A stretch of DNA of 64,000 bases from a virus. Its lineage: Duplodnaviria > Heunggongvirae > Uroviricota > Caudoviricetes. Location of the stretch: the IMG/VR virus record IMGVR_UViG_3300029739_000183, one strand, 5' to 3'. The notes beneath the pieces are model-generated. The model was not told the origin of the DNA. It saw nothing but the letters and a program-made list of their open reading frames with translations, and searched no databases. Positions 3,182-51,301 of the stretch are shown here, piece by piece. Position 1 is the stretch's first letter, and every line of letters begins with the position of its first letter. Made by a program: the position numbers and the translations under genes.

Positions 3182-3589
3182 TTTTAGTATCTCCTTTTCT
3201 TTTTTTTGATCTGCATACGATGCGTTTGCAATTTTTAAGATAGCATAAAACAAATTTCTTCCTTTTTTATAAGAAAACTCTCAAAAAAGGCATAAGAATG
3301 TGTATATAAATATGTATAAAAAGTTTTCTTTTTTTTGTTTTAAAGGATTTTTTAAATACTAAATTGATAGAAAAGTTTCGATCAGTTAATTTTTTCTTAC
3401 AAAAAATTACTTTCTTTTAAAAATGTTATAACTTAGATACCAACTGGAGGGTTAAAACAAGAAAGAAGCGAAGTTTTATAAAAACAGAACTGAGATGTCT
3501 GCAGACTAAAACAAATACATATTATATCAATCCTTCTACTTAGCCTAACGACTGGATTTTGATGAAAAATTAAAAAAGGAGATAGATTA

Positions 3590-13181: not shown

Positions 13182-14198
13182 TTATTTTATTGACATATTA
13201 TTGACATTATGTATGATGATTTCATCTTCTCCATATAAATTATGCTTTATTTCTATATCGGATCGATTATAAACATCCATTGGGATAGAAATTTCGATAC
13301 CGCTATCTGTTACAATAACTTGTTTTTCAAGTTTTTTTACTGTTGATTCATTTTCAATCTTTATTTTGTCGTACTGCATATCATAATTTTCCATCTTTTC
13401 GTCAAAAGCAGCTTTTTTATCTGGACTACTTCCAAACAATTCTGATCCAATAGATTCGATATCTAATTCTTTTTCATCTATATATCTTTTTAGCAAAGAA
13501 GCTTTTGCATCCATCTGTGGTTTGATATCTGTTCCGTCATAGCTTTTACAAATATTTGTGATTGTGTGGTTTACAATATCTAACTTTTTTTTGGGAGATT
13601 TTGATGTGTTACAACAAAGAAATAATTCTGAAAAATAATTCTTCTTTTCTCCATTGATATTATATCGTTTTTCTGTCAGACGGATACTCTTGTCTGTTAA
13701 ATTAATGATTGCCGCTTCCGATGGTTTTGTTGTTGCAGAAGGAAGAAGAGACAGAATTTCTGTTAATCTGGTCACTGTGCCGGCATTCTCTTTGCTGATC
13801 TTTCGTATGTAACTAGAGCGATAATTTAATTTTACCAAAGCTAGGTATATTGTACCTGATTCCTGGAAAGAAGCGCATATAAGGTCTGCTGGTGGGATAT
13901 CCTCCCCTTTCGTCATGATCTGAAATAAAGTATGTGCGATTTCTTTGCTTGTTTCCATAAAACTCGTCATGTCACTTTCATTTAATTTGGAAAGTAGGTC
14001 GTAAACATGACTGTTATCCGGATAAAACTGCCCATACATGGAACTGTCATTTTTATGTACTTTCTTTAATATATTACATAGAAAATCAAATTGATCTCCA
14101 ATGAGATCCAATGGGGAGTTGGATAGTACCATACCTTTGTTGCAATTATCCAGTATATGTAGCACTGCTTTTCGTAAAATGATATCGTTATTTTCCAT
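13182..14198 (-). CDS. nucleoid-associated protein, NdpA/YejK (NA37)-like
   Basis: The ~338 aa length and the N-terminal ILRKAVLHILDN motif resemble the NA37 family. RBS AGGAGG upstream. Assigned by pattern only. Confidence 0.35.
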   Translation of the reverse strand: MENNDIILRKAVLHILDNCNKGMVLSNSPLDLIGDQFDFLCNILKKVHKNDSSMYGQFYPDNSHVYDLLSKLNESDMTSFMETSKEIAHTLFQIMTKGEDIPPADLICASFQESGTIYLALVKLNYRSSYIRKISKENAGTVTRLTEILSLLPSATTKPSEAAIINLTDKSIRLTEKRYNINGEKKNYFSELFLCCNTSKSPKKKLDIVNHTITNICKSYDGTDIKPQMDAKASLLKRYIDEKELDIESIGSELFGSSPDKKAAFDEKMENYDMQYDKIKIENESTVKKLEKQVIVTDSGIEISIPMDVYNRSDIEIKHNLYGEDEIIIHNVNNMSIK

Positions 14199-15002: not shown

Positions 15003-16943
15003 TTAAAGAGTTTTAAATATTTCTTCTGAGATAATAGGAATTCCAAGTTCTTTAGCTTTCTTGTTTTTACTAGATGTGGATAAAATATCATTGTTGATGA
15101 GATAAGTTGTCTTAGAAGAAATGCTTCCAGCCACTTTTCCTCCACGTCTTTCAATTTCTTCTTTTAAAGCTTTTCTGTTAGGATACCCTGTGAGAGTGCC
15201 AGTGATCACAAAAATCTTTCCAGAGAGATCTGTTTCATCTGATGCATTCTCTTTTTCAAGCTGAATATTTAATTCCGCACATAAATCTATATATTCTTTG
15301 ATATTTTTCTTAAACCAGTTAATGATGGAAGAAGCATTCACTTTTCCAATGCCGTTCATCGCCATTAATTTTTCTAAAGCGTTTTCGGAAAAAACAAGAT
15401 TTACAAGAGTTTCTGCAACGGGTTCTGCCAGTTCTTTCTGGAGGATTTTTGCAACATCATGTCCAACACCGGGAATACCAAGTGCATAAAACAGCTGACG
15501 GAAAGTAGTATTTCGGCTCTGTTCAATCGCCTTTATCATGTTGTTATATGACTTTTCTCCAAAACCATCCATTGCGACAATTTGCTCTTTGTAAGTGTCT
15601 AAATGATAGAGGTCTGCAAAGGTCATTAAAAATCCATTTTTTACAAATGTTTCGATTGCTGATTTTGCGATACCGGTTACATTTAATGCATCTCTTTCCA
15701 CAAGACGAGTATATTTTCCAATATGTTTTGCTGGACATTTCGGATTTTCGCAATATAAAAATTCCGAAGACTTATCTGCGTTGAAACGTCTAGTAACCGC
15801 CTGTTTACATGCTGGGCATTTCGCTGGGATTTTTATATAATTCCCGTTCATTGTGAGATTTTCGTCTACCTGCGGAATGATTTTATTCGCTTTGTAGATG
15901 GTGATAGTATCTCCATAACCAAGTTGTAATAGAGATAAGTAACTTAAATTGTGCAGACTTGCTTTTGTTACCATTGTGCCTTCAATCTCAACGGGTTTAA
16001 ATAGTGCAACTGGATTGATAAGTCCAGTTCGAGAAGGTGACCATATTACATCAGTTAATGTCGTTTCCACGCTATCATCCTGCCATTTAAAAGCAATAGA
16101 ATTTCTTGGAAACTTATTTGTAACTCCCAGACTAACACCATATGCAATATCATCCATACACAAGACTAACCCATCTGTAGGGAATGTATAAGATTCCACT
16201 TCTTTTTCAAAATAATCAGTTATCGTTTCTTTTATCGTAAAAGCAGTAACTTTTTTGTATTCAACTACTGTAAATCCCTGCTTTTCCATCCAGTGGAAAC
16301 TTTCTTCGACTGTTTTTGGCATTTTTGGACATTCGACTAAAGTAAAGGCTTTGAACTGTAGATGTCTAGTAGATGCTTTTTTTGAGTCATATAAACGTAG
16401 GCTTGCGTTTGCCAGATTTCTTGGATTTTTGTACTCTCCATTTTCACTTTCTTTGATTTTCTCGAAATCATTATATGATAGAATACACTCCCCTCGGACA
16501 ATAACCTTGCCTGTTTCTCTGATTTTCATAGGGAGTCCCTTAATACAGCGGGCATTATGCGTTACATTTTCCCCGATCTCTCCATTGCCACGAGTAGCAG
16601 CCATAATCAGCTGTCCATTCTCGTATGTAGCTACAACAGTCATTCCATCCATTTTCCATGATAAAACTCCGTCTTGAGTCCCAAGCCATGTCTCTAAAAA
16701 ATGTACATCTTTTGTTTTGTCCAGAGATAATGCTTTTTGTTCATGTTTAACTTTTGAAAGTTCTGATACAACAGTATATCCTACTTCCTGTGTCGGGCTG
16801 CCTGGCAGTATAATCCCTGTCTCAACTTCCATACTAACAAGCCTGTCATATAAGGCATCATATTCCCTGTCTGACAAAGGGGATTGTTCCCCAAAATAAT
16901 ACGCTTTTCTTGCTTCATTTAACTTGTTTACTAACTCTTTCAT
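15003..16943 (-). CDS. ligA: NAD-dependent DNA ligase LigA
   Basis: Adenylation motif KMDG (WKMDGM), OB domain, Cys4 zinc finger (CPACK..C..C), HhH domain and a C-terminal BRCT domain are present. RBS TAAGGAGG upstream. Confidence 0.9.
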   Translation of the reverse strand: MKELVNKLNEARKAYYFGEQSPLSDREYDALYDRLVSMEVETGIILPGSPTQEVGYTVVSELSKVKHEQKALSLDKTKDVHFLETWLGTQDGVLSWKMDGMTVVATYENGQLIMAATRGNGEIGENVTHNARCIKGLPMKIRETGKVIVRGECILSYNDFEKIKESENGEYKNPRNLANASLRLYDSKKASTRHLQFKAFTLVECPKMPKTVEESFHWMEKQGFTVVEYKKVTAFTIKETITDYFEKEVESYTFPTDGLVLCMDDIAYGVSLGVTNKFPRNSIAFKWQDDSVETTLTDVIWSPSRTGLINPVALFKPVEIEGTMVTKASLHNLSYLSLLQLGYGDTITIYKANKIIPQVDENLTMNGNYIKIPAKCPACKQAVTRRFNADKSSEFLYCENPKCPAKHIGKYTRLVERDALNVTGIAKSAIETFVKNGFLMTFADLYHLDTYKEQIVAMDGFGEKSYNNMIKAIEQSRNTTFRQLFYALGIPGVGHDVAKILQKELAEPVAETLVNLVFSENALEKLMAMNGIGKVNASSIINWFKKNIKEYIDLCAELNIQLEKENASDETDLSGKIFVITGTLTGYPNRKALKEEIERRGGKVAGSISSKTTYLINNDILSTSSKNKKAKELGIPIISEEIFKTL

Positions 16944-24884: not shown

Positions 24885-25922
24885 TTAAAGATGATATTCT
24901 TTTAATAAATTATCTCGGTAAGCAGGATCAGTAACAGCGCGTACAAGATCCTCCATACGTCCATCATTTAAAAGAAATTGATTGAGTTGTGTAAGCTTTT
25001 CTATGCCTTCGTCTACTCCTTCAGCACGACCTTCAGCACGACCTTCAGCACGACCCTCAGCACGACCCTCAGCATGTCCTTTTGCTCTTCCTTCACGCCA
25101 TCCGTCTTCTAAAATAGCTTCGCTAAGATTGCACATAAGATCACTCCTTTCCATCATGATCCGTGTCATAGGGATATGATATTCCTGTTCTAACACTTTC
25201 TTCCGTTGTGCTGCCGGCATTGTTGGCGACAAGAGAGTGCCTAACATCCGGTGCAGGTTCCCTGGATCTTTTTCCTTAGATAGTTTTTTTGAAAGACAGA
25301 CCATGATAACTTCCATCAGATCATATCGTACTTTTTCTGTCGGGAACTGTCCAACAATATGTTCTGGAGTAATATGATACCGGGTGATTGTGTTTTCTGC
25401 GTACTTTGGAGAGTCCATACAGATCCATATGCTAATCACTTTTTTTAAACTGTTGAAATCTGGATCTTCAAACTCTTTTCCAAGCTGTGCGGATGTCATG
25501 CGGGAAGTATAAAAGAACCCCCTTGTCACAAAATCGTGTCCTGTGTGGTATTTTTTCTGTGCTTCGACATCTAAGATGATTTTGACTTTTCCCTTCTCAT
25601 CTGGAGTGTAAGCATAAAAATGAATATCATACACCACTTTTTTCTCATTTGGGACACTGTCCTCGGTATTCATACCAGTAATCTCTGGGTTTTGTGTTCG
25701 TTTGTTTGTCTCGCCGGGATATAAGTGTACGGTAGAAATCTCTGGTTGTCCTTCAATTAGAGGAACGATATCTTCCGGTTTCATCCCTTTGTATTCTGAT
25801 ACACACCTTGCAAGGATATGTGCCAGAATGATTTTTTCTGATAAAAGGCTTTTTGCGTATTCATCATATTTTGCTTTCGCTTCAGATAAATCCAGTTTTC
25901 TTGAAATACTTGTTTCATCCAT
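24885..25922 (-). CDS. Rpn-family recombination-promoting nuclease / PD-(D/E)xK putative transposase (YhgA-like)
   Basis: Family-typical C-terminal tail with tandem (A/H)EGR repeats followed by ..LNQFLLNDGRMEDLVRAVTDPAYRDNLLKEY. The start was set at the ATG at 25922 (MDETS..), 8-10 nt after GGAAGGAGG. The track start is GTG with no spacer. Confidence 0.65.
   Translation of the reverse strand: MDETSISRKLDLSEAKAKYDEYAKSLLSEKIILAHILARCVSEYKGMKPEDIVPLIEGQPEISTVHLYPGETNKRTQNPEITGMNTEDSVPNEKKVVYDIHFYAYTPDEKGKVKIILDVEAQKKYHTGHDFVTRGFFYTSRMTSAQLGKEFEDPDFNSLKKVISIWICMDSPKYAENTITRYHITPEHIVGQFPTEKVRYDLMEVIMVCLSKKLSKEKDPGNLHRMLGTLLSPTMPAAQRKKVLEQEYHIPMTRIMMERSDLMCNLSEAILEDGWREGRAKGHAEGRAEGRAEGRAEGRAEGVDEGIEKLTQLNQFLLNDGRMEDLVRAVTDPAYRDNLLKEYHL
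25014..25080 (-). repeat. 12-bp tandem repeat (x5, TCAGCACGACCT-like) inside the rpn coding sequence encoding (AEGR)n
   Basis: Near-perfect direct repeats are visible at 25021-25075. Confidence 0.7.
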
Positions 25923-26071
25923 CTGTTCCACCTCCTTCCGTTACGGCAGGTAGGAACAATCCCATATCCTGCCAATAATATATCCAAGCTGGATATGGTA
26001 AGCATCCAATTAATGTCTCCTTATTTTGAATTCTTACTCATATGATAACATGTTTTATTACATGAAACAAG

Positions 26072-26094
26072 TTTTTAGAATCCGATTCTTTTTC
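26072..26094 (+). repeat. palindromic element AGAATCCGATTCT with T-rich flanks
   Basis: Copy 2 of the recurrent AAAAGAATCGGATTCTTTT family; 75 nt upstream of the ATG at 26169. Confidence 0.6.
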
Positions 26095-26168
26095 CATAAA
26101 TTCAGAAATCATACTTTTCTTCATATTAAAAACGTAAAAATTTTTCAAATATAAAGGAGGAACAAATT

Positions 26169-26621
26169 ATGAGTTATTATGCAGGATATCATGGTGTCGC
26201 TTGTTATTTATCAATCGAGGATTTCGAGGATTTTATGAAATCTTATTTTAAACTGCACCCAGACTTAACAGAAGAGGAAAGAGAGGATTTAGACCTGGAG
26301 GAATATGCTTTTAAAAAAAGTGATGGAAGTGGTGATTTTAGCTTTTTTGAAGTCACTGCGGATAGTGCGGATGGAATGAGAATATTCCCATTTCAATACG
26401 AAAACATTCCAGGAAAAGAATGTATCGATTTGCCAATAGTAGACCAATATGTCGTCTTTGCGGATTATCAGCCAGATACTTTAGAATTTATATGTAATCC
26501 TCAATATCATAGCTATGAGGATATACTGAAAGAATTTAAAGGAAAATTAGAAAAATATCTTCCTGAAAATTTTCCGTGGGATGAAAGAATCGGTAGATAT
26601 AGTTATGTTGTTTATGCGTAA
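26169..26621 (+). CDS. hypothetical protein (150 aa, acidic)
   Basis: ORF with RBS AAGGAGGAAC before the ATG. Preceded by the palindrome module. Confidence 0.45.
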   Translation: MSYYAGYHGVACYLSIEDFEDFMKSYFKLHPDLTEEEREDLDLEEYAFKKSDGSGDFSFFEVTADSADGMRIFPFQYENIPGKECIDLPIVDQYVVFADYQPDTLEFICNPQYHSYEDILKEFKGKLEKYLPENFPWDERIGRYSYVVYA

Positions 26622-26639
26622 TGAAAAAAGGAGAATACA

Positions 26640-27332
26640 ATGGATATTTATACAATTCTGTCATTAAAAGAACAGCTAGATGATTTAGATAAGAAAAGAA
26701 TCCATTTATACAATAATATAAAAAAATATTGTGAATCCTTAGATCCAGAGTATTTAAAAACGCTAGATTACACTGAACTTAAAGAGTTCTTTCATGCTCT
26801 TGAATTTTATCTGCCAGAGAGTGTTCAGATGGTTTACCGTAGAATACGGGAAGAAAAATATCCAGAATTAAAAAAAGCTGTATATTATCCAGAATTAAAT
26901 CAGATTGATTTTCTATCTTTAAAGAAAATCAAGACGATAGATACACTATTGGGCACAAAATGGAAAAAAGGTGATTTTATATATAAACCTTTTTACTCTG
27001 CAGCTGATTTAAACCGTGAAGAACAGGAGAAATTTAATGATTATGCTGTAGCAAAAAGGATATTTATAAAAAAATATAGATTTCGATGTAAATGTGGAAA
27101 ATGTTTTAGTAGACTTTTTTCCAAAGACACATTTAATAACATGAAACGTTTTTATGAATCTGGAATAGATACTACAGGTTCAGACGAAGTGGATTCTTAC
27201 TTTTATATTGAATGCGAATATGATTCTGATTGCGACCTCGAAATTTGTGATAAAAAAAGTTTCGAAAGAGCAAAGTACGATGTTTGTTACATAAAGGCTA
27301 AAGAGCCTAATACCGAACATGAGCAATACTAA
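26640..27332 (+). CDS. hypothetical protein with C-terminal Cys cluster
   Basis: ORF with RBS AAAAGGAGAATAC before the ATG. Contains FRCKCGKCF and CEYDSDCDLEICD. Confidence 0.45.
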   Translation: MDIYTILSLKEQLDDLDKKRIHLYNNIKKYCESLDPEYLKTLDYTELKEFFHALEFYLPESVQMVYRRIREEKYPELKKAVYYPELNQIDFLSLKKIKTIDTLLGTKWKKGDFIYKPFYSAADLNREEQEKFNDYAVAKRIFIKKYRFRCKCGKCFSRLFSKDTFNNMKRFYESGIDTTGSDEVDSYFYIECEYDSDCDLEICDKKSFERAKYDVCYIKAKEPNTEHEQY

Positions 27333-27351
27333 TACTAAAAAGGAGAACTTT

Positions 27352-27477
27352 TATGAAGTACGGAAAAGTAATTGATTTACATGAAAAGAGAAGAGAGATT
27401 TTCCGCAAAAAGATTGTTAAAAGCCTAAAACATAGCGTTAAAACTGCGAAGAAGAATCTTAGTGATCTGGAAAAATA
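27352..27477 (+). CDS. small basic protein (41 aa)
   Basis: AAAAGGAGAAC RBS lies 5 nt before the ATG. A terminator-like hairpin (AAAAGGAATCAG..CTGGTTCCTTTTTTTT) follows at 27501-27535. Confidence 0.3.
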
Positions 27478-27535
27478 AATCCTATCATAATATTTACTCG
27501 AAAAGGAATCAGAAAATTTCTGGTTCCTTTTTTTT

Positions 27536-27556
27536 GAAAAGAATCGAATTCTTTTT
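27536..27556 (+). repeat. palindromic element GAAAAGAATCGAATTCTTTTT
   Basis: Copy 3 of the palindrome family; 86 nt upstream of the ATG at 27642. Confidence 0.6.
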
Positions 27557-27641
27557 GTAGCCAGTTGGCGAAAATCGAAAAAGAAAAATATTAAAATATA
27601 CAAATTAGTTATATAAAAATTTCAAACAAGGAGGAAGTTCT

Positions 27642-27914
27642 ATGAATTTCAAATTAACTTTCACAAGCAATGAGGATATTATGGAAAAATATGGTTCAAC
27701 ACAGGGAAGATCGATAAGTACGAACAAAATTGTTGAATTTATAAAACCGCTAATATCCATTGATTTGCCTAATATGGCAGCACAGATGAGGTTTTGTTTA
27801 GAATCTGGCGAGGGGTTTAAGATATTCCCTCAAAAGATCAGTGTTCAAGGAAACAGCCCCAAAGTTTACACAATAAAAACAGCAAGAAGTCTTTATGTGT
27901 TTGAAGAACTTTAA
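27642..27914 (+). CDS. hypothetical protein (90 aa)
   Basis: ORF with RBS CAAGGAGGAAG before the ATG. Confidence 0.4.
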   Translation: MNFKLTFTSNEDIMEKYGSTQGRSISTNKIVEFIKPLISIDLPNMAAQMRFCLESGEGFKIFPQKISVQGNSPKVYTIKTARSLYVFEEL

Positions 27915-28075
27915 AATTCATAGTTGATAAGAAAGAAAGTCTAAACAGGGCTTTCTTTTTTTGATTAAAAAGAAAAATTATAAAAATATTCAGATTAATA
28001 AGGTAAAAGAAATTTTTCAAAATAAGGAGGATAAAAATATGCAGACAAGAAAAGGTAGACATGAAATATCTTGGT

Positions 28076-28092
28076 GGAATCGAATTCTTTTT
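28076..28092 (+). repeat. palindromic element GGAATCGAATTCTTTTT
   Basis: Copy 4 of the palindrome family. It lies inside a possible 23-aa mini-ORF (28039..28110, RBS AAGGAGG) and 39 nt upstream of the ATG at 28131. Confidence 0.5.
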
Positions 28093-28130
28093 CATAGAAT
28101 AGATCAGTAAAATAAGAAGGAGAAAAAGAT

Positions 28131-29024
28131 ATGAGCAAGATATTAAATAACCCAAAACAGATTGCCGGGTTAACTCACAGCCGGGGAAAAGGAAAAGCGA
28201 TTGTTTTTGCCATCCAAAATGAGTTAGATATTGCCAAATGTGAAAATAAAAATGAACCGTTAAATTTACATAGTAAATTCAGCCGTTTCCCTGTCGTAAT
28301 TATTAATGAAAATAACCGCCCTGCAACAGCTAATATTCCTGTTAATGAAATGTTGAATATCATTATGAAATCAAAAACATTACATGATCTGGAAATAAAA
28401 CAGGCATGCACGCCACATAATGAGGAATTTTCTTCTCCTGCTTACACCGTTCGATTTACCTCCGGTGATATGCGAGGAATGACACCAGCAGAAGTTCTTT
28501 TAAAAGATCCGGAAAATTCGAAAAAATTAAATGAACAATATACGTTTTTGAAAGAAAATCTGCCGAAATATCCTAAAAATAAAAAGCAGTTAGATGCAAT
28601 CACCGATGCTGCTCGGCTTTACAAAGAAGGTAAACTGCAGAAATCAGAAAGGACTGTTATTCCATCTTATCTTTTGTATGAATCTGGATTCCGCCCTCTT
28701 ACAAGAAGAGAAAAAAAAGATGGATTGACATTTGTTTACCAGATAAAACTGACTTGGAATTTCGGAGAGAGTAATCCAGTACGGTTAGAAATTGAAAATT
28801 TTTATGCACCTGTTATACAGACAGAACAAGGTCTTTTAAACGTACAAGCAAAAGAGAAAAAAAATAGTACGGCGAATGAATTCCATTTTTCTTTAGATGA
28901 ATGGAATTGGCTGATACATCTGATTGAATCGAATATCCGTATTTTTGAAGCAATTGCTGGACCAAAAGCGCTTAAAATTGCAACAAATATGGCGGAAGAA
29001 AAAAAAGAAAAGTTTGCACTATAA
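28131..29024 (+). CDS. hypothetical protein (297 aa)
   Basis: ORF with RBS AAGAAGGAGAAAAAG before the ATG. No recognisable family. Confidence 0.45.
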   Translation: MSKILNNPKQIAGLTHSRGKGKAIVFAIQNELDIAKCENKNEPLNLHSKFSRFPVVIINENNRPATANIPVNEMLNIIMKSKTLHDLEIKQACTPHNEEFSSPAYTVRFTSGDMRGMTPAEVLLKDPENSKKLNEQYTFLKENLPKYPKNKKQLDAITDAARLYKEGKLQKSERTVIPSYLLYESGFRPLTRREKKDGLTFVYQIKLTWNFGESNPVRLEIENFYAPVIQTEQGLLNVQAKEKKNSTANEFHFSLDEWNWLIHLIESNIRIFEAIAGPKALKIATNMAEEKKEKFAL

Positions 29025-29033
29025 AAAAGACCC

Positions 29034-29061
29034 TTCGGGGTCTTTTTTTTTGAAAAATGAG
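29034..29061 (+). terminator. Rho-independent terminator
   Basis: AAAAAGACCCTTCGGGGTCTTTTTTTTT hairpin. Confidence 0.6.
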
Positions 29062-29164
29062 TATTTTTGGACTAAAACTAGAAATTAGAACAAAATTAAA
29101 AATTATAATCTTCCACATATTATAATCGTACATAAAATACTTTCAATATAAAGGAGGAAAAATA

Positions 29165-29602
29165 ATGTTGAACAAAGTAATTTTAATGGGCCGTTTAACA
29201 AGGAACCCGGAAGTCAGATATTCTCAGGGTGAGAAAGCAACATGTGTAGCAAAATATACTTTGGCTGTAAACAGAAGATTTCACAGAGAAGGTGAACAGG
29301 ATGTAGATTTTATCAACTGTGTTGCTTTTGGTAAACAGGGAGAATTTGCTGAGAAATACTTGAAACAGGGTACAAAGATTGTCATTTCCGGAAGAATTCA
29401 GACAGGTAGTTATACCAATCGTGACGGAGTTAAAGTTTATACAACAGACGTTGTTATTGAAGAACAGGAATTTGCAGAAAGCAAAAAAGCTGCAGAAACA
29501 TCTTCAACTCCACAGAATACACAGGGTGTAAAATCAAACCCTGAAGATGATGGATTTATGACTATTCCAGAAGGTGTGGAAGAAGAACTGCCGTTTATTT
29601 AA
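29165..29602 (+). CDS. ssb: single-stranded DNA-binding protein
   Basis: N-terminal OB fold (MLNKVILMGRLTRNPEVRY), an acidic C-terminal tail ending DDGFMTIPEG..EELPFI (DDIPF-type), and RBS AAGGAGG upstream. Confidence 0.85.
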   Translation: MLNKVILMGRLTRNPEVRYSQGEKATCVAKYTLAVNRRFHREGEQDVDFINCVAFGKQGEFAEKYLKQGTKIVISGRIQTGSYTNRDGVKVYTTDVVIEEQEFAESKKAAETSSTPQNTQGVKSNPEDDGFMTIPEGVEEELPFI

Positions 29603-29618
29603 AATTCAAAACAACACA

Positions 29619-29650
29619 AAAAAGACCTATCACATCATAGGTCTTTTTTT
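29619..29650. terminator. bidirectional terminator hairpin between ssb and the convergent gene
   Basis: AAAAAGACCTATCACATCATAGGTCTTTTTTT hairpin. Confidence 0.5.
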
Positions 29651-30342
29651 AATTCTTTCGTTTGAAAAATGCGTGAAATATTTAATTGCTCTATAAGGAT
29701 TTTTTGTAGAAATTTTGGTTCTTCTCGGGCATATTCTACAGATTTAAACATCTGGTCTGTGATATCTGTGTCGAAAACAGGAGTTACAAAATAACCTTTT
29801 TTCTTTAGATACAGGAGAAGATGACGATATATTGTCATGAGATCCTTATCTGGGAAAAAGACCAATGCTGCATAAAAAAAAGCATCTGACAATTCTGGTA
29901 TAGTGATGATTGGCTCTAATTTAATTACTTTTCCCCGCTTATGCTGACGGTTTGCTTCTTTTATAATTTCTGTAGTATCCGGGGTTCCACCATGAAATAT
30001 CAGCAGAATGTCAGCACTAGCTATCATATGTTTCATTCGAGAAAAATAAGGAGACTTTTCATCTGCAACTAAAGGAAAACTACGAATCTTTAATTCATTT
30101 TTATCTGCGTATTCTCCTAAGATTCTTTCCTTGTCTTCTTCACGGGATAAGATTTCATCTACGGGAATCCTTTTTAAAAAAGAATCGAGTTCGGAATATA
30201 TCACATCTTGTCGAGAGTAGCCATCAGGAATAACAACCATCAATTTTTTCTTTTTTTTCTTTCGGCAATATTCTTTTTTTTCACATTCAAGACAATCTAT
30301 ATATAAAACCGGTTCTCCGGTAAGATAACATATCTTTGCCAT
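29635..30342 (-). CDS. hypothetical protein with N-terminal zinc ribbon and SLOG/DprA-LOG-like Rossmann core
   Basis: N-terminal CYLTGEP..CLEC..C motif. The central ADILLIFHGGTPDTTEIIKEA segment resembles the DprA/LOG (SLOG) nucleotide-binding fold. It is divergent from hsdM. Assigned by pattern only. Confidence 0.3.
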   Translation of the reverse strand: MAKICYLTGEPVLYIDCLECEKKEYCRKKKKKKLMVVIPDGYSRQDVIYSELDSFLKRIPVDEILSREEDKERILGEYADKNELKIRSFPLVADEKSPYFSRMKHMIASADILLIFHGGTPDTTEIIKEANRQHKRGKVIKLEPIITIPELSDAFFYAALVFFPDKDLMTIYRHLLLYLKKKGYFVTPVFDTDITDQMFKSVEYAREEPKFLQKILIEQLNISRIFQTKELKKDL

Positions 30343-30545
30343 AACGCTCTCCTTTATTTTGGTTTATAAGTTTATCATATATTAATCTGTATGATAAAGA
30401 TTTTTTGTAAGAAAAACCACGATCTTACTATGTTTCTTACAAAATTTCTTTTTCTTTTTTTTGCGGTATTATCCCTGTGTTGGCATATCAGAGTATTTGG
30501 AAAAAAAATAAACATATTAAACCTTGGAAGGAGGTTCTTTTAGAT

Positions 30546-32084
30546 ATGATAGAAAGACCAGTTATTGAAAATCAGATCATTGATATTATCGACCGCTTAA
30601 AAGGGTTGTGCCATACCTGTGGACTCAGTAATCAGGCAGCGGAAGAGGAGATTGTTACTTCTGTATTCTTATATAAATACCTAAGTGACAATTATAAGAT
30701 GCAGGCTTATAAGGAAGCTGTACGTACAGGAAAAAGTATAACAGATATTTTTGCTTCTGGTGTCGATACAGAAATAGAACTTAAGGCGGAAGACTTGATC
30801 GACTGTATGGTGCGTATAATGGATCGCCCACATATTGCAGATATCTTTGACAATACACTTATCCGAATTGCATCTTATCCTAAAAATAAAAAACTGAGTA
30901 AATTTTTAGATGAGCCGTTATTTAAACCAATCACAAAAAATATAGAAAAAAGGGATGAATTTGTACGGGAAATTCTTACTGTAATGAACGGACATAATAT
31001 CTTTTCAAATGGAGCGGACCATTTTGCTCCTATTTTTGAATATTTGATCAAAGATTATAATGTAGCAAGTGGACGTTATGCAGAATATTATACACCGGGT
31101 GAGATCAGCCGCATCATTGCCAAAATACTTACACAGGATGATAAACAGAAAAATCGGACCATTTATGATCCATCAGCGGGTTCCGGCTCTCTGCTCCTAC
31201 ATTTAGCTAACGAACTTGAAGATTGTAGTATTTTTTCACAGGATATTTCTGTAAAATCAACAAGGCTGTTAAGGATCAATATGATCTTAAATGGCTACAC
31301 TGACAGCATACCAAATATCAAACAAGGTGATACACTTTTGAATCCATATTTTACAGACCAAAAATATGATTACATTGTATCGAATCCTCCATTTAAAACT
31401 GATTTTTCGTTTACGAGGGAGGATATCGCACAGAAATGGGAAAATCGTTTTCCTGATGGACTGCCAGAGATACCTAAGAAAAAGAAAGAGAGTATGTCCA
31501 TTTATCTATGTTTTATACAACATGTGTTATGGGCTTTAAATGAAAAAGGAAAAGCAGCAGTTGTTGTTCCAGCTGGTTTCTTAAATATAAAAGATGGAAT
31601 AGAAGAAAATATCCGCAAACGTCTTGTTATGAATGGATGGCTTTCTGGAGTTATCATTATGCCAAGAAATAGTTTTGCAAATACAGCAACTAAAGTGGCT
31701 GTCCTTTTTATTGATAAATCGTCTTATCATACGCAGCCAGTATTGATGGATGCTTCTGAACTAGGAACATTAACAAAGATTGGAAAAAACAAGAAAGTAC
31801 TCCTGTCAAAGGAAGACATCGATATGATTGTACATGGATATTTTAAAAGAGACACATCTATGACAGTATCCCCTCTCTTATCAGATATTGCCCTTAATGG
31901 ATATAGTTTTATCCCCGGACATTACATGACAATAAAAAATTATCAAAATCTTTTATCAGAATCAGAGTTTAAACAAAAGACAATACAATTTGAAGATAAT
32001 TACAGAATGTTATGTCAGCAGGAAAAAGAGTCTGATTCCGATATTTTTTCTGTCTTATCGGAAATAAGGAGGGAATTATGTTAA
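30546..32084 (+). CDS. hsdM: type I restriction-modification system methyltransferase subunit HsdM
   Basis: Contains YYTPGEISRIIAKIL, AdoMet motif I (DPSAGSGSLLL) and motif IV (NPPF). The start at 30546 has a GGAAGGAGG RBS. Confidence 0.85.
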   Translation: MIERPVIENQIIDIIDRLKGLCHTCGLSNQAAEEEIVTSVFLYKYLSDNYKMQAYKEAVRTGKSITDIFASGVDTEIELKAEDLIDCMVRIMDRPHIADIFDNTLIRIASYPKNKKLSKFLDEPLFKPITKNIEKRDEFVREILTVMNGHNIFSNGADHFAPIFEYLIKDYNVASGRYAEYYTPGEISRIIAKILTQDDKQKNRTIYDPSAGSGSLLLHLANELEDCSIFSQDISVKSTRLLRINMILNGYTDSIPNIKQGDTLLNPYFTDQKYDYIVSNPPFKTDFSFTREDIAQKWENRFPDGLPEIPKKKKESMSIYLCFIQHVLWALNEKGKAAVVVPAGFLNIKDGIEENIRKRLVMNGWLSGVIIMPRNSFANTATKVAVLFIDKSSYHTQPVLMDASELGTLTKIGKNKKVLLSKEDIDMIVHGYFKRDTSMTVSPLLSDIALNGYSFIPGHYMTIKNYQNLLSESEFKQKTIQFEDNYRMLCQQEKESDSDIFSVLSEIRRELC

Positions 32085-33115
32085 AAGATTTATGTACTGG
32101 ACATATAGATTATGGGCATACAGCTTCTGGTAAAGAGATAGGAAGATACCGATATGCTCGCATCACAGACATAGACCCATTGGGACGTATGAAGAAAAAA
32201 GATATGCGCTATGTTGATACTGGACAAGAGAAAATATTAAGAAAAAATGATTTGGTGATTGCCCGTACTGGGACACAGGCAGGTAAAGCTTATCTGTATG
32301 ATCCAAAAGACGGAGAACTTGTTTTTGCTAGTTTTTTGATCCGTTTTCATTTGGATCCTGAAAAAGTAATCCCGTCTTTTATAAAATATTATATGCTATC
32401 CGATGCTTATAAAAAATGGGCAGAAAAAACTGCTTCCGGAAGTACTAGAAATGGGCTTAATATTGAAACGCTGTCCAAAATGCCGATACCAGATATGCCC
32501 ATGGCTGCACAAAAAAATATTGTTAGAAAAATGGATGCATTATATAGGGCACTGGAAATACAGGAGAATACAACTCAATTGTTGGAAGAGTATGCACAGA
32601 ATGTTTTTGATTATATGTCGAACAGACTGCAGACAAAAGGGAAATTGAAAGATCTGGTTATATTAAAAACGGAAAACAAAAAAAAGGAAGAGTACGGTAC
32701 GATTCCTATATACAACTCAGGAGGGGTGTCAGGATACGCCAAGTCTTCAAATGGAATAAAGGAAAGTGTGATCATCCCATCTTCTGGAACACTTGACCAT
32801 CTTTTCTATGTTAACACACCTTTTTGTGCAGGGACAACGGTATTCTATACTGAGATGAAAAAAGAAAAGATTGGGATTTTTGTATATTATACAATGAAAA
32901 AATATGATATGAAAAAACTGGATTCTGGTTCTGTAATACCAGGTGTCAATTCAGATACAATATATCATCTACCTTGCATGATACCAGATGATAAATGGCT
33001 TGAACAATTCAATCAAATCGCTTACCCAATATATGAAAAGATAGCAGAAGTGAAAAAGAAAGCAGAAAAGATAAAAAAATATTTATCTTTTCTGTCAGCA
33101 TATTATTTTGGCTGA
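32078..33115 (+). CDS. hsdS: type I restriction-modification specificity subunit HsdS (two TRDs)
   Basis: Its start overlaps the hsdM stop. It has two target-recognition halves separated by a central conserved helix region. An A8 homopolymer lies in the central region (32680-32690). Confidence 0.65.
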   Translation: MLKDLCTGHIDYGHTASGKEIGRYRYARITDIDPLGRMKKKDMRYVDTGQEKILRKNDLVIARTGTQAGKAYLYDPKDGELVFASFLIRFHLDPEKVIPSFIKYYMLSDAYKKWAEKTASGSTRNGLNIETLSKMPIPDMPMAAQKNIVRKMDALYRALEIQENTTQLLEEYAQNVFDYMSNRLQTKGKLKDLVILKTENKKKEEYGTIPIYNSGGVSGYAKSSNGIKESVIIPSSGTLDHLFYVNTPFCAGTTVFYTEMKKEKIGIFVYYTMKKYDMKKLDSGSVIPGVNSDTIYHLPCMIPDDKWLEQFNQIAYPIYEKIAEVKKKAEKIKKYLSFLSAYYFG

Positions 33116-33156: not shown

Positions 33157-34416
33157 ATGAATGAACAAAAAAAAGTCAAAAAGAAAATACTGTTCACGGC
33201 TATAGTCCTGTTTGTAATACAGGCTTTTGCTGGTATCCCTACACCAGGAGTAAACATCGATTATTTTAAAGCGTTGCTGGAACAGAATACAACTGCGGGG
33301 TTATTTAATGTGTTATCAGGCAACGGATTGAGTAACTTATCAGTTACGATGCTATCCATAACACCATATATCACTGCATCTATTATCTTACAGTTGCTCA
33401 CAATCGTTATCCGGCCACTGGAAAAATTACAGCGGAATGGTGAGGTTGGACAGCAGACTTTTAAAAAATACACGATCATATTAGGAGTTATCCTTGCATT
33501 TATGGAGTCATTTGGTTTTGCTTACGGTTTTGGACAAAAAGGATTGTTGCTATCTTTTAAATGGTACTGGGTAGCCCTTGTGACCATCATCTGGGCAGGA
33601 GCAGCATTGCTCTTAATGTTAGCAGGAGAATTTATTGAAAAAAAAGGCTTTGGAAATGGTATTTCTTTGATTCTTTTATTCAATATCCTGTCTTCTTATC
33701 CATCAGATGCGATAACGGTTTATAATCGATTTTTACAAGGATATGGCATAGATAAAAAAGTATTCCATGGTATCGCTATTTGTATTATTCTGGTTGTATT
33801 ATTTGCCTTTACAGTATATATCCAATTCATTGAAAAAAGAATTCCTGTAGAATACGCTTTCAAAACGATGGGAACAGTAAAGAGTGAACAAAGTTTTTTC
33901 CCAGTAAAACTTTGTCCGGGTACGGTAGTACCGGTAATCTTTTCCAGTTCTTTAATGGCAATCCCTTCACTTGTTGCTTCTTTTATGGGAAAGAATTTTT
34001 GGATTGCCGATATGCTAAACTCTTCCAAGTGGTTTGATCCGGAGCATCTTTCGTATTCCGTTGGGGCAGTCATCTATATTGCCTTGATTTTTATATTTAC
34101 TTATTATTATACAGAGATGATTATCAATCCAATAGAAATTGCTAATAATTTTAAAAAGACTGGAGGTACGATCCCTAATGTCCGCCCAGGAGAAGATACT
34201 GTAAAATATCTTACATCAGAGATTCGGAAGGTAATCACTATCGGAGCCGGGGCATTATCCTTGATCGCATTAGTACCTTGTGTTTTGGCAGGATTATTTG
34301 ATATATCAAAATTGTCCTTTGCCGGCACCTCTGTTATCATCATTGTTGGTGTTATCGTAGAAACATTAGACCGTTTTTATGCAGAAGTCAAAGCGAAAAA
34401 TATGAAACTGACCTAA
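33157..34416 (+). CDS. SecY paralog (SecY2-like, 419 aa) outside the ribosomal-protein operon
   Basis: Contains the SecY signature ITPYITASIILQLLT and 10 predicted TM segments. RBS AAAAGGAGAAA upstream. It is not in the rplO-secY-adk context. Confidence 0.7.
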   Translation: MNEQKKVKKKILFTAIVLFVIQAFAGIPTPGVNIDYFKALLEQNTTAGLFNVLSGNGLSNLSVTMLSITPYITASIILQLLTIVIRPLEKLQRNGEVGQQTFKKYTIILGVILAFMESFGFAYGFGQKGLLLSFKWYWVALVTIIWAGAALLLMLAGEFIEKKGFGNGISLILLFNILSSYPSDAITVYNRFLQGYGIDKKVFHGIAICIILVVLFAFTVYIQFIEKRIPVEYAFKTMGTVKSEQSFFPVKLCPGTVVPVIFSSSLMAIPSLVASFMGKNFWIADMLNSSKWFDPEHLSYSVGAVIYIALIFIFTYYYTEMIINPIEIANNFKKTGGTIPNVRPGEDTVKYLTSEIRKVITIGAGALSLIALVPCVLAGLFDISKLSFAGTSVIIIVGVIVETLDRFYAEVKAKNMKLT

Positions 34417-36767: not shown

Positions 36768-37841
36768 ATGATAATCGTTAAAACAGAGGATATCTCTTCT
36801 GCTATCAAACAGGCAAAAGTTATGATTAGACCAGGGTCATTGATTTTGGAAAACAGTCTACGTTTTTCTGCAAAAAAAGATAAACTCTATATCCGAACTA
36901 ACTCTGGCGGAATCAAATTTATTACGAGAATTCCTTGTACATGTGACAGAGAAGTTGATTTTATGGTGAATATCCATCTTATTTCATCTACACTTCCGTT
37001 TTTCCTTTCAAAGTCTCTGGAAATCCTGCCTGATGCTAAGAAGGAAACAGTCTTATTTAAAAGCAAAGAATTACAAGTAGAAATCAAAACAATCCCACTA
37101 GCTGTATGGGCATCTTATAAAATCAGGTCTGTATGGAATATTGATATCTCTGTAGGAGCTGAAACGCTTGTTTCGCTTGTGAACAGAACAGCATATGCGT
37201 CTGATACAAAAGACAGTACAGACAATCGAGCAATGTTGAACTTTTCAGTCACATCCGATGAAAAAGGATTGAAAGTTACTGGTCTTGATTTTTATCGTTC
37301 TGCTACCTGTGCAACAGGAAAGATCAACGACCTTGTAGAAAATTCTTTTACAATTCCTACAAAGACGCTAAAAGTGATTCTGCCTTACTTAAAAGGTACA
37401 GTGCATTTAAAAAAATATGGTAATGAATACGCAATAAGTACAGAAACTATGGCACTTTATGGTCATACTCCGGCTATTGACTACTATGATATCTCGACGC
37501 TTTTGGAAAAATGTCCAGAAGATTCTGTGATGATTGATAAAGATTATTTTTTACGTTACTGCGAAGTTGCAGCAATTGTAAATAAAATGAAAATTTTCAT
37601 CAACATACAAGAAGAGTACCTGGAGGTTTCAGCTTCTGGGAATGGTGGAAAAGTAGAAAACAAAATTGAAACAAAAAGCAGAGTAAAAGCTACGTATTGC
37701 GTAAATCCGGTATTTATCATGGATGTGTTAAAAAAATGTCCTGAGAAAAAAATTAAGATGTATTATAGCAGATATAGTACAAAGCCGTTGTTTTTCAAGG
37801 GAGATGATCATATTGACATGGTGATGCCAATACAAAATTGA
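36768..37841 (+). CDS. DNA polymerase III beta sliding clamp (DnaN)-like protein, divergent
   Basis: The ~357 aa length, the N-terminal MxIxxxxxxLxxAxxxV pattern, the three-domain beta-rich periodicity and the C-terminal ..MVMPIQN tail resemble DnaN. RBS AAAGGAGGAT upstream. It lies next to a Gp157-like gene. Confidence 0.45.
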   Translation: MIIVKTEDISSAIKQAKVMIRPGSLILENSLRFSAKKDKLYIRTNSGGIKFITRIPCTCDREVDFMVNIHLISSTLPFFLSKSLEILPDAKKETVLFKSKELQVEIKTIPLAVWASYKIRSVWNIDISVGAETLVSLVNRTAYASDTKDSTDNRAMLNFSVTSDEKGLKVTGLDFYRSATCATGKINDLVENSFTIPTKTLKVILPYLKGTVHLKKYGNEYAISTETMALYGHTPAIDYYDISTLLEKCPEDSVMIDKDYFLRYCEVAAIVNKMKIFINIQEEYLEVSASGNGGKVENKIETKSRVKATYCVNPVFIMDVLKKCPEKKIKMYYSRYSTKPLFFKGDDHIDMVMPIQN

Positions 37842-37853
37842 GGAGGATATCAT

Positions 37854-38342
37854 ATGACTTTATATGAACTGACAGGAGATTTTATAAAACTTATAGATAC
37901 AAAAAAAGAGATTGATGATGCAGAAGTGCAAAAAGATATCGAAGAATCTATAAAAAACAAAATCATTAAAAAACTGGAAGGGTATGCCAAAGCAAGACAG
38001 TCGATTAATGCAGAAATCAATGCACTAAAAGAAGAGGAAAAACGCCTACAGGAACGTAGGAAAAAACTTGAAAAAAGATCCAGCATGATCGATGACCGCA
38101 TAAAAGCTTCTATGTTGGCTACGGAGATTCGCGAAATAACAACGCCATTGTTTACACTTTCCATACGTCCATCTAAAGATCTTCTGGTAATTGATGATGA
38201 AACATCTGTACCGGTACAATTTTTTGTGCCACAGGCTCCAAAAATCGACAAAAACAAACTCAATGAATGGGCAAAAAACAATCCAGGAAGAGTAAATAAT
38301 TTTGGACATTATGAGCCGGTAAATTCTTTGATTATCAAATAA
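37854..38342 (+). CDS. Siphovirus Gp157-like phage protein
   Basis: The ~160 aa length, the MTLYELTGDF..L start and the central coiled coil match Gp157. RBS GAGGAGGAT upstream. Confidence 0.5.
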   Translation: MTLYELTGDFIKLIDTKKEIDDAEVQKDIEESIKNKIIKKLEGYAKARQSINAEINALKEEEKRLQERRKKLEKRSSMIDDRIKASMLATEIREITTPLFTLSIRPSKDLLVIDDETSVPVQFFVPQAPKIDKNKLNEWAKNNPGRVNNFGHYEPVNSLIIK

Positions 38343-38805: not shown

Positions 38806-39498
38806 ATGAGTGAAACAGGAAAATGCTTTATCTGTGGCAGGAGTACAAGAAGCGGAATGGACATTTGCCCAGACTGTTTCTCAAGATTACCACAATGTTG
38901 TCAAGGTAAAACAAAATATGAAAAATTGACAAAAGAAGAAAAGAAGACCATCATTACGTCTCCTCTCTGGCAGATGAGAATATATAAAAGCGAGGCATAT
39001 CAAGCTTTTGGGGAAAGACTGGGTCTCTATCCAGAAAGAGGTGTTTTCTTTTTTTCAGGAAATAACCTTAGCATGGAAAATATTGATAATGTACAGTTTG
39101 AGCAGAAAATTATAAAAATAACGGAGGGTGATAATGCACAGCAAATGCGTATAAAATTAAAAGTTTATGTAAAAATAAAAACACATACACCTAAATTATC
39201 TTTAACTGATTATCTTGGAACAATAGAATTTCCATTGGAAGAAGGAAAGCAGTTTCCGAATATATATTGGAAGACTGAACAGATGCTTAACAATTGGGAA
39301 AGACCAGTGAAAATCCCAAACATGACGTATCATGAAGCTTCCACTTTATATATGTTTCAAGGAGGTTATACAAAAGAAGATCTGTCAAAAAGAAGAAAAA
39401 ATTTATTAAAAGTCTTCCATCCGGATCAGAAAGGAGAAGAGGAGTGCGCCAAAAGAATCAATATGGCTTATAATATCCTCAGACCATATGCAAAATAG
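38806..39498 (+). CDS. J-domain (DnaJ-like) protein with N-terminal zinc ribbon
   Basis: N-terminal CFICG..CPDC motif. The C-terminal J domain carries the HPD motif (LLKVFHPDQKGEEECAKRINMAYNIL). Confidence 0.6.
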   Translation: MSETGKCFICGRSTRSGMDICPDCFSRLPQCCQGKTKYEKLTKEEKKTIITSPLWQMRIYKSEAYQAFGERLGLYPERGVFFFSGNNLSMENIDNVQFEQKIIKITEGDNAQQMRIKLKVYVKIKTHTPKLSLTDYLGTIEFPLEEGKQFPNIYWKTEQMLNNWERPVKIPNMTYHEASTLYMFQGGYTKEDLSKRRKNLLKVFHPDQKGEEECAKRINMAYNILRPYAK

Positions 39499-40006
39499 AA
39501 ATCCGTTTATTTCGATTATCTTGTACACTTTAAAATACGCAATAATCATGTTATCTTTTATTATTCTGATGCAGTTTGTAGTAACACATATTATTATGAA
39601 TGGATACATCCCGTCTGCTTCTATGGAACCGGGATTAAAAGAAGGAGATTTTATTATCGGAAACAGACTGGTAAAAAAGTACCATCGAGGCAATGTTGCT
39701 ATTTTCTGGTCGGAAGAAAATAAGTATTATATTAAGCGTATCATAGGAGTCGGTGGTGACCATATCGTGATAAAAGACCATGCAGTTTATTGTAATGGTA
39801 AAAAATTAAAGGAACCTTATATAAAAGAAGAAATGCTGACAGATGAGGAGTTAGAATATACAGTGCCTAAAAATTGTTATTTCTTCTTAGGGGACAATCG
39901 AAACTATTCAAAAGATAGCAGGTATTGGAAATACCCGTTTATCAATAAAAAAGATATGATCGCAAAAGTAATGTTTCGTTACTGGCCCTCTATAAAAAAA
40001 ATATAA
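39488..40006 (+). CDS. lepB: signal peptidase I (S26 family)
   Basis: N-terminal TM helix, catalytic Ser box (SASMEPGL), Lys box (YIKRIIGVGGD) and GDNRNYSKDSRYW. Its start overlaps the upstream J-domain gene by 11 nt. Confidence 0.75.
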   Translation: MQNRNPFISIILYTLKYAIIMLSFIILMQFVVTHIIMNGYIPSASMEPGLKEGDFIIGNRLVKKYHRGNVAIFWSEENKYYIKRIIGVGGDHIVIKDHAVYCNGKKLKEPYIKEEMLTDEELEYTVPKNCYFFLGDNRNYSKDSRYWKYPFINKKDMIAKVMFRYWPSIKKI

Positions 40007-50641: not shown

Positions 50642-51301
50642 TCATTTCTTGGAAAAAGAATCGGATTCTTTTTCCATAAAACTATAATAACAATAATATA
50701 ATTGGCTGTGTTCATTATCTTTGCTTATCTCGTAAAGAGCATCCAATATATTGATGCCCAGTTGCTCAGCAGGCACTTTTAAACGATATAAAGCTAAAAA
50801 ATTTTTCCCTTCAATAGTTGTAAAAAATCGGTAGGCTTCTTCTATGGTATAAAAAACTTTATAATGCTCAATCAGATAGCGGAAACAATGACAGAATCGC
50901 TGAAATCCAGATGTTCCACTAAAATATTCCCTTGGAAACTGTTCTTCATCTTCCAGCACAGACCGATAGATGCGCTCCGCCAAAATCCTTTGGCTTAGGT
51001 GCATTTTCGCCGGATAGAGCAGAGAAAGAATATATTCTATGGATCCTTTTTTTACCTCTGTCGGATAATCAATATATAAAATAATCCGCTCTAATTTTAA
51101 TTGTCTGATCATGTATTCATCGAAACGTTTTACTGTAGTATCTACAGTCCAGTTCAATAATTTTTCAATCGCATATCTGATCAATTGAATGGCTACCTTT
51201 TCGTTTGCCCCTCCTGGCTCAGAACCATAAAAATAATAGCTGCTTAGAGCAGGAGTACGCCCAATAAGATAGTCTTCATAAGCAATGTATAAACTATTCA
51301 T
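50642..51301 (-). CDS. hypothetical protein (219 aa), divergent from helicase gene
   Basis: AAAGGAAGG RBS lies 8 nt before the ATG. The last ~8 codons are formed by palindrome copy 7 (50654-50674). Confidence 0.45.
   Translation of the reverse strand: MNSLYIAYEDYLIGRTPALSSYYFYGSEPGGANEKVAIQLIRYAIEKLLNWTVDTTVKRFDEYMIRQLKLERIILYIDYPTEVKKGSIEYILSLLYPAKMHLSQRILAERIYRSVLEDEEQFPREYFSGTSGFQRFCHCFRYLIEHYKVFYTIEEAYRFFTTIEGKNFLALYRLKVPAEQLGINILDALYEISKDNEHSQLYYCYYSFMEKESDSFSKK

Follow-up and report, generated by a model that had tools for sequence, protein, structure and literature searches.

Gene organisation in a candidate DNA-handling region of a conjugative plasmid-like element from gut Lachnospiraceae

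We analysed an array of small genes located at 26.1–29.0 kb within a 64,000-nucleotide stretch of DNA (IMG/VR record IMGVR_UViG_3300029739_000183; the whole stretch is referred to below as the window). We consider the chances to be about even that this array belongs to a region for DNA handling (replication, recombination and repair) in a conjugative plasmid-like element of ~200–285 kb from gut Lachnospiraceae (Anaerobutyricum), an interpretation which takes in a map of the transcription units, a predicted Whirly/PUR fold for the protein O6, the exchange of the genes O1 and O4 between element lineages, and a palindrome which is most likely an operator. The element was seen on contigs of 143–285 kb and recurs in hundreds of human gut metagenome assemblies, with several of its proteins indexed in hundreds of sequence blocks, and one copy was found on a 210-kb contig of an NCBI metagenome-assembled genome of Anaerobutyricum soehngenii. 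A megablast search of 16.5 kb gave no near-identical DNA match in PLSDB or INPHARED. The genes of the element include those for SecA, LigA, SbcCD, SSB (two copies), SecY, RecJ, DnaE, a RecD-like helicase, a ParB_N protein, DUF3801 and two type IV secretion system (T4SS) coupling proteins (T4CPs); parts of a Sec translocon are encoded by the element itself, besides genes for replication and repair. For comparison we used loci from related elements, which are given L-numbers (L008, L014, L140, L143 and others). In most relatives the block SbcCD–[O1–O2–O3]–[O4]–[O6]–ssb–...–RecJ is syntenic, with local changes.

Open reading frames and transcription units

The original prediction had described six co-oriented open reading frames (ORFs) without recognisable homologs, and all six exist on the plus strand: O1 (26169..26621; 150 aa, acidic, isoelectric point (pI) 4.3), O2 (26640..27332; 230 aa, with four invariant cysteines, C150, C152, C155 and C192), O3 (27353..27478; 41 aa, basic, pI 10.3), O4 (27642..27914; 90 aa), a mini-ORF of 23 codons (28039..28110) and O6 (28131..29024; 297 aa). 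The start of O3 is at 27353 and not, as first given, at 27352. The absence of a recognised family was borne out, as neither O1–O6 nor the mini-ORF gave anything meaningful in searches of Pfam, PHROGs, NCBIfam or PADLOC; an Rfam scan of 25800–29800 returned no family. In comparison with related elements, five of the six ORFs were under purifying selection, with ratios of non-synonymous to synonymous divergence (pN/pS) of 0.15–0.29 for O1, 0.26–0.28 for O2, 0.29–0.68 for O3 (0.29 against L008), 0.12–0.19 for O4 and 0.10 for O6. O3 was also called and conserved in L008, L014, L140 and L143. The mini-ORF showed no purifying selection, having 1 synonymous versus 3–7 non-synonymous differences among related elements. 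All of the ORFs are therefore real except the mini-ORF.

Each ORF had been thought to carry its own hairpin terminator. By RNA folding, strong intrinsic terminators, each comprising a GC-containing hairpin and a U-tract (z −3.7 to −8.6), were found after O3, O4, O6 and ssb (29165..29602, +; Pfam SSB, E 5e-30), the gene that follows the array. The first of these (27500..27536, +; −17.3 kcal/mol, z −4.6) is conserved in four elements; the others are those of O4 (27929..27961, +; −13.9 kcal/mol, z −4.4), O6 (29023..29048, +; −14.1 kcal/mol) and ssb (29618..29649, bidirectional; −13.8 kcal/mol). No terminator was found in the intergenic gaps after O1 and after O2. These gaps are only 18–20 nt long and hold a ribosome binding site (RBS) but neither a palindrome nor a terminator, and O1, O2 and O3 are therefore read as one operon, with O1 as its first gene and O3 as its last. 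From ORF spacing, terminator energies and a recurring upstream module, we infer that the transcription units are [O1–O2–O3], [O4] as a single-gene unit, [leader/mini-ORF–O6] and then [ssb].

A predicted Whirly/PUR fold for O6

O6 has 44 homologue clusters, and its AlphaFold model, which was built from an alignment of 37 sequences, was confident (predicted local distance difference test score (pLDDT) 88, predicted template modelling score (pTM) 0.74). The model comprises two beta4-alpha repeats flanking a conserved helical insert, and when the predicted structure was assessed against the Whirly/PUR (PC4-like type I) fold it was found to belong there. O6 is thus predicted to be a sequence-orphan newcomer to this fold class. 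Structure prediction had been proposed with anti-defence folds in mind; in the event, the model of O1 contained no DNA-mimic or other known fold and it was O6 which gave a recognisable, if predicted, architecture. Plant organelles and trypanosome mitochondria are the best-known sources of the Whirly fold, and the superfamily would be widened by a bacterial family which is carried on plasmids and has a conserved helical insert. The closest known systems are the Whirly, MRP1-2 and PUR-alpha proteins, which share the PC4-like type I fold (PMC7549692).

Several points weigh against this assignment. O6 has no Whirly or PUR/PurA match in Pfam at E ≤ 0.1, a profile search of PDB sequences returned nothing relevant, and the function proposed for it is drawn from a predicted fold and a gene neighbourhood.

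The neighbourhoods of O6 and its relatives fit a role on single-stranded DNA. In the window SbcCD is encoded 3.3 kb upstream of O6, ssb begins 140 nt downstream and RecJ is encoded 5.6 kb downstream. The order is DHH/RecJ-like protein, O6 homologue and double-strand-break-repair AAA ATPase in the Ruminococcus albus plasmid pRUMAL01; DnaE, SSB, RecJ and O6 homologue in L146; RecJ and then O6 homologue in L148, with RNase_T and SSB close by; and DnaE, RNase H, O6 homologue and UvrD in L147. In L002-5 and L141, which are small Blautia-type mobilisable elements, a MobA relaxase (MobA/MobL) is followed by a 163-aa gene and the O6 homologue. Relatives of O6 adjoin RecJ, SSB or DnaE also where no conjugation genes are in view. 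A search of species-representative genomes gave only four loci, all of them from Lachnospiraceae or Clostridia. It should also be noted that in L146, a different element, the DnaE–SSB–RecJ–O6 homologue group is also linked with YidC and signal peptidase.

On the strength of the modelled fold and these neighbours, O6 would bind single-stranded DNA (ssDNA), acting with SSB and RecJ or, in the smaller elements, with a relaxase. It would probably coat, protect or anneal the ssDNA that arises as an intermediate in transfer, replication or end-processing. For a conserved orphan, a fold and a likely ssDNA substrate (with RecJ, SSB or relaxase as partner) give a testable starting point, which is relevant to how large plasmids of Lachnospiraceae replicate, repair and transfer their DNA.

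O6 is preceded by a leader (27962..28130, +) which contains promoter-like CAGATT at 27991, TTCAAA at 28016, an RBS at 28024–28030, the mini-ORF, a degenerate palindrome (GGAATCGAATTCT) and an anti-Shine-Dalgarno stretch. This leader of ~170 nt is 97–100% identical in L008, L140 and L143, and in comparison with L140 it is more conserved than the synonymous sites of O6 itself. In the predicted RNA fold (−17.6 kcal/mol, z −2.05), UUCUUUUUC at 28084–28092, inside the mini-ORF, pairs with the Shine-Dalgarno sequence of O6 at 28115–28123. The mini-ORF is preceded by a strong RBS. The folding model suggests that translation of O6 may be coupled through the mini-ORF, the translation of which would melt the anti-Shine-Dalgarno hairpin before O6.

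An intergenic palindrome and a promoter-like module

The palindrome AGAATCnGATTCT had been reported to bracket every ORF of the array ~75–85 nt before the ATG. We found it in exact form at one of the six ORFs, as AGAATCCGATTCT at 26077..26089 in the divergent region between a PDDEXK_2 gene (−) and O1 (+), and in degenerate form at two more: AGAATCGAATTCT at 27540..27552 (one mismatch), directly 3' of the O1–O2–O3 terminator, and the leader copy GGAATCGAATTCT at 28076..28088 (two mismatches), which falls within the mini-ORF, just 42 nt ahead of the O6 ATG. A scan allowing mismatches found no copy before O2, O3, the mini-ORF or ssb.

The palindrome is nevertheless strongly enriched in the window, with 20 matches at ≤ 2 mismatches versus 5.8 expected. 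For the core GAAT-N3-ATTC, 14 sites were observed versus 2.0 expected (the maximum in 500 local shuffles was 6), and 9 of these 14 are intergenic, though intergenic DNA makes up only 12% of the window. Further copies are located at 1235/1258, 8435, 14961, ~18100 (degenerate), 36291, 46705 and 50657, and the palindrome was also found past the right end of the window. The copies at 27540 and 46705 directly follow strong terminators, those at 26077 and 36291 lie between divergent genes (36291 being flanked by two divergent promoter-like modules), and that at 50657 is at a convergent gene pair. Orthologous sites are retained in related elements with drift of 1–2 bases. The 26077 site has drifted to GGAATCCGGTTCT in L014 and AGAATTCGATTCT in L008 and is absent in L140 and L143, while the 27540 site is kept in L014, L140 and L143 and altered to AAAATCGAATTCT in L008. 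Unrelated elements of similar GC content contained no palindrome with A/T-tract flanks. A scan of IMG/VR gave only single chance matches per contig, and collection-wide motif scans of this kind therefore cannot settle the specificity of the palindrome.

By analogy with known plasmid systems, the palindrome is most likely an element-wide operator of the KorA/KorB type. In this scheme, AAAAGAAT-N3-ATTCTTTT would be bound between genes throughout the element by a dimeric, element-encoded regulator; this is the weakest step of the proposed mechanism. Among the proteins encoded by the element are ParB_N, NA37 (13182–14198) and a weak sigma-like protein, none of which could be connected with the palindrome. 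In plasmid RK2 the OB sites are likewise dispersed over the plasmid. The RK2 operator OB, TTTAGCGGCTAAA, is a palindrome of 13 bp, and KorB acts from it to silence promoters over long distances (PMC11790492). Shared features are a short palindrome in which arms of 6 bp flank a single central base, multiple intergenic copies, a variable distance from promoters, and a ParB_N protein encoded by the element (53514–54602). Unlike in RK2, the sequence of this candidate operator is an unrelated one, the host is Gram-positive, some of the copies also form terminator hairpins, and among close relatives sites have drifted or disappeared.

The operator reading has evidence against it, and much of this bears on a serious rival, namely that the palindrome is a spreading intergenic repeat (similar to repetitive extragenic palindromic elements) or a weak bidirectional terminator or insulator, which recurs through duplication of terminator–promoter spacers and not through regulation. 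The distance from the palindrome to the −10-like box is variable (28–40 nt, counted by hand), orthologous copies drift by 1–2 bases, and O1 can do without the site upstream of it. Genuine terminator hairpins are formed by two copies, one being the double copy at 1235–1270 (−21.4 kcal/mol) and the other the copy at the convergent pair at 50657 (−12.3 kcal/mol), and a structural or spreading-repeat origin is therefore possible. The flanking A-tract and T-tract resemble those of bidirectional terminators, and the similarity extends past the palindrome: 28059–28093 is a 77% copy of 26060–26094, and the right flank TTTTCCATAAA is common to the copies at 26077, 50657 and ~18100. However, most single copies form very weak RNA hairpins (−0.6 to −4.9 kcal/mol, with −0.6 for the 26077 copy) and lie right after strong terminators, where a second terminator would be needless; the copies at 26077 and 36291 are in divergent promoter regions with nothing to terminate; and the GAAT and ATTC arms are kept as sequence, with no compensating changes. 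On this evidence we hold the repeat or terminator explanation to be unlikely, and prefer the operator. Comparison with cre, CodY and Spo0A boxes, made by eye, gave no convincing match.

The array also bears a superficial likeness to integron cassette arrays, in that small co-oriented genes, a recurring imperfect palindrome and presence/absence variation occur together. Unlike in integrons, the palindrome is found at only three of the six gene starts, upstream of promoters and not at the 3' end of a cassette, and no integrase is present. Site-specific cassette exchange of the integron kind was ruled out by the positions of recombination breakpoints, which lie inside O4 and at terminators and not at the palindrome.

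The promoter–RBS module which had been assigned to each gene of the array is real as a recurring sequence, but it is general to the element. Its parts are an A-tract (−24 to −21), a CATATT (−10-like) box, a spacer of 12–20 nt, TTCAAA and AGGAGG, and it stands before at least 12 operons of the window, with the starts of O1, the mini-ORF and ssb among them. The predicted promoter-like/5' untranslated region of O1 (26122..26160, +) has CATATT, 16 nt, TTCAAA and AAGGAGG; the module of ssb (29116–29157) resembles it and has no palindrome. At O4 the box is the variant AATATT and is set further from TTCAAA. A scan for sigma-70-type promoters, which counts against the preferred interpretation, showed no excess over shuffled sequence (12 found versus 16 expected), and promoter function is therefore inferred from the recurring module and the terminators only. 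A general caution of method follows, in that a recurring palindrome and RBS module mimicked cassettes when they were actually the general intergenic style of the element.

The −10-like CATATTA box was compared by eye with sporulation sigma-factor consensus sequences, and no convincing match was found. At 2186–3253 (−) a 355-aa protein is encoded which has a Sigma70_r3 match below threshold (E 5e-5; 23.7 bits versus a cut-off of 25.3). From this match, the protein may be an element-encoded sigma factor and could relate to the unusual promoter-like module; a PDB sequence search gave no support for it.

Exchange of O1 and O4, gene neighbourhood and host element

O1 and O4 are accessory genes which are exchanged between element lineages by ordinary homologous recombination. 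In L008, O1 is deleted, its promoter is fused to O2 and a new 181-aa gene is inserted after O2; in L143, the commonest variant, O1 is internally truncated; in L140, O1 is a 63%-identical allele and O4 is partly deleted; and in L014 a 73-aa gene stands in place of O4, with O6 and ssb missing at that position. Between the window and L143 identity is 65–80% across O1, 100% from 26640 to ~27700, 76–86% from 27700 to 27950 and 98–100% from 27950 to 29700, such that the 3' two-thirds of O4 has been allelically replaced between near-identical backbones, which elsewhere share 99–100% identity. Synonymous divergence (pS) from L143 is also high in the swapped parts (0.37 in O4 versus 0.005 in O6), and the diverged alleles were therefore imported by homologous recombination and did not arise by fast protein evolution. 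Mosaic breakpoints fall at ~26630, ~27700 (inside O4) and ~27950 (a terminator). The palindrome is not a cassette boundary, because breakpoints lie inside O4 and at terminators, and because the commonest variant has no such site ahead of O1. The original prediction had looked to related strains for variable cassettes between conserved palindromes: the variation was found, at O1 and O4, but the palindromes drift or, upstream of O1 in L140 and L143, are absent.

The distribution of O4 is very narrow, with only ~10 relatives among 1.8 billion representative proteins. One of these (P0079) has the same length as the 73-aa gene of L014 and 48% identity to O4, and may be the same protein. A similarity of O4 to repeats of giant surface proteins (26% identity over 38 residues) was judged spurious, because the score was inflated by repeat copies. 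O2 has 9 homologue clusters, and in another element family (L010-13), which lacks the palindrome, it forms a pair with an O1 homologue; PDB sequence profiles of O1 and O2 gave only noise.

The surroundings of the array are dominated by DNA-handling genes. Upstream the order is SecA (10489–13086), the NAD-dependent ligase LigA (15003–16943), SbcD/SbcC and the PDDEXK_2 gene (−), and then the array and ssb. The array had been described as running into ssb and then a type I restriction-modification locus. The first part holds, but a 235-aa gene (−) intervenes downstream of ssb, and the locus which follows comprises only HsdM and HsdS (30477–33115). As SecY (33157–34416) follows directly and no HsdR was found in the neighbourhood, HsdM and HsdS look like an orphan, self-protecting methyltransferase and not a full restriction-modification system. 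Beyond these are RecJ (−), a weak DnaN-like gene, a Sipho_Gp157 gene (37854–38342) and DnaE (46785–50621). Farther right are a RecD-like helicase, the ParB_N gene, DUF3801 and the two T4CPs (57168–60970), all at 51–61 kb. The ParB-like gene, which had been placed next to the array, is in fact 24 kb away, at 53514.

These findings bear on the likeness to anti-defence arrays which had originally been drawn. On such a reading the array would be a leading-region anti-defence or establishment island, the small genes of which are expressed early in the recipient and block restriction, CRISPR or the SOS response, with the palindrome modules as shared regulatory units of exchangeable cassettes. Allele swapping between near-identical backbones is often seen in conflict-related accessory genes, and O1 and O4 are hotspots where the gene is replaced by another allele, deleted or truncated. 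The strongly acidic character of O1 (net charge −19) fits, as do the T4CPs, DUF3801 and ParB_N, which mark an element of conjugative type, the flanking of the array by ssb and the orphan methyltransferase, the position of O6 relatives downstream of a MobA relaxase in small elements, and the presence of the O1–O3 operon only ~4 kb from ParB_N and DUF3801 in L014-16. An ssb gene and an orphan methyltransferase are typical of leading regions, which are defined by where they lie relative to oriT, by anti-defence folds of known type and by ssDNA promoters (PMC11541004). The criteria applied here were a place on the transferred strand no more than a few tens of ORFs downstream of oriT/relaxase, anti-defence genes such as ArdA/Ocr-like, Acr or PsiB, and Frpo/ssi-type promoters in the form of long imperfect hairpins with −35/−10 elements. 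The window thus resembles leading-region islands (Samuel et al. 2024, PMC11541004) in its co-oriented, small, mostly uncharacterised genes beside ssb and an orphan methyltransferase, in the conjugative type of the element and in gene content which varies between relatives. It differs from them in that the array contains no known anti-defence gene or Frpo-like ssDNA promoter and is surrounded by replication and repair genes on both strands, among them SbcCD, PDDEXK_2 (−), the 235-aa gene (−) and RecJ (−).

Further evidence stands against the leading-region reading. Neither a relaxase nor oriT was found across the 64-kb window and the ~10 kb past its right end, and the nearest transfer genes, the T4CPs, are 27 kb from the array. 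When four promoter-bearing intergenic segments were folded as ssDNA, no Frpo-like hairpins were found (z −0.16 to −0.71 versus shuffled sequence); the gene-distal segment 25932–26080 folds at z −2.5, with several short hairpins and not one long one. No ORF matched an anti-defence or defence profile in the four databases searched, O1 lacks a DNA-mimic fold in its model, O6 is a predicted nucleic-acid binder whose relatives also occur away from conjugation genes, and the palindrome does not delimit recombination. Because the searches gave neither a relaxase nor oriT, and neither an Frpo-like hairpin nor a known anti-defence domain, the leading-region anti-defence reading is unproven; for the array as a whole we regard it as possible but doubtful, with O1 and O4 as the genes to which it may still apply.

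A bolder combination of these ideas may also be considered, in which O6 founds a mobile-element family of the Whirly fold that protects or processes the incoming single strand at establishment, O1 and O4 are rapidly exchanged anti-defence or exclusion determinants, and the palindromes are KorB-like operators for plasmid-wide silencing in a Gram-positive megaplasmid, where an element-specific promoter type and the sigma-like protein may also take part. We consider it quite unlikely that all of this would hold together.

It is very improbable that the array is the early or replication module of a phage or phage-plasmid, with O6 as a phage-type recombination or replication accessory protein. The Sipho_Gp157 gene points in this direction, as does the O6 relative in L147, which is embedded in a replication module resembling that of a phage (with Phage_rep_org_N, DnaE, RNase H, dUTPase and a sigma70_r4 protein), and a Whirly-like protein has reportedly been found in jumbo phages. 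However, no capsid, terminase or tail genes were found in the ~84 kb examined, 50,697 phage records contained no match, and O1–O6 had no PHROG match. A conjugative plasmid is indicated instead by the T4SS coupling proteins and, beyond the window, by a gene for a large surface protein of Gram-positive type, and sortase and pilin genes lie beside the O6 homologue on the unrelated contig L148. The plasmid-like DNA-handling region accordingly remains our preferred interpretation of the array.

Several further observations concern the surrounding genes and relatives. The PDDEXK_2 gene (24885–25931, −) is transposase/Rpn-like with a C-terminal (AEGR)n repeat; compared with L143, the commonest variant, it has been inserted, and L008 retains no more than a remnant of it. 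Among the four relatives, L008 and L014 keep the drifted 26077 palindrome and window-like upstream sequence, while L143 and L140 are without this palindrome and L143 is also without the PDDEXK_2 gene. In L010-L013 the O1 and O2 homologues lie within a long series of over 25 small genes which share one orientation and are for the most part unannotated, including DUF4314, DUF3841, YAcAr, an acetyltransferase and an SMC-like ATPase, with no palindrome copy; this array resembles a classic early or leading-region array more than the window does. The 235-aa gene between ssb and HsdM (29635–30342, −) is conserved in all relatives and has only faint matches, one with a SLOG/YAcAr domain and one with a PHROG family that carries the annotation GTP-binding domain. 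A signal peptidase is encoded at 39488–40006. Adjoining Sipho_Gp157, at 36768–37841, is a 357-aa protein with weak, below-threshold matches to the DNA polymerase III beta clamp (E 4e-5 for the N-terminal and 5e-3 for the C-terminal domain), which suggest that it may be an element-encoded sliding clamp.

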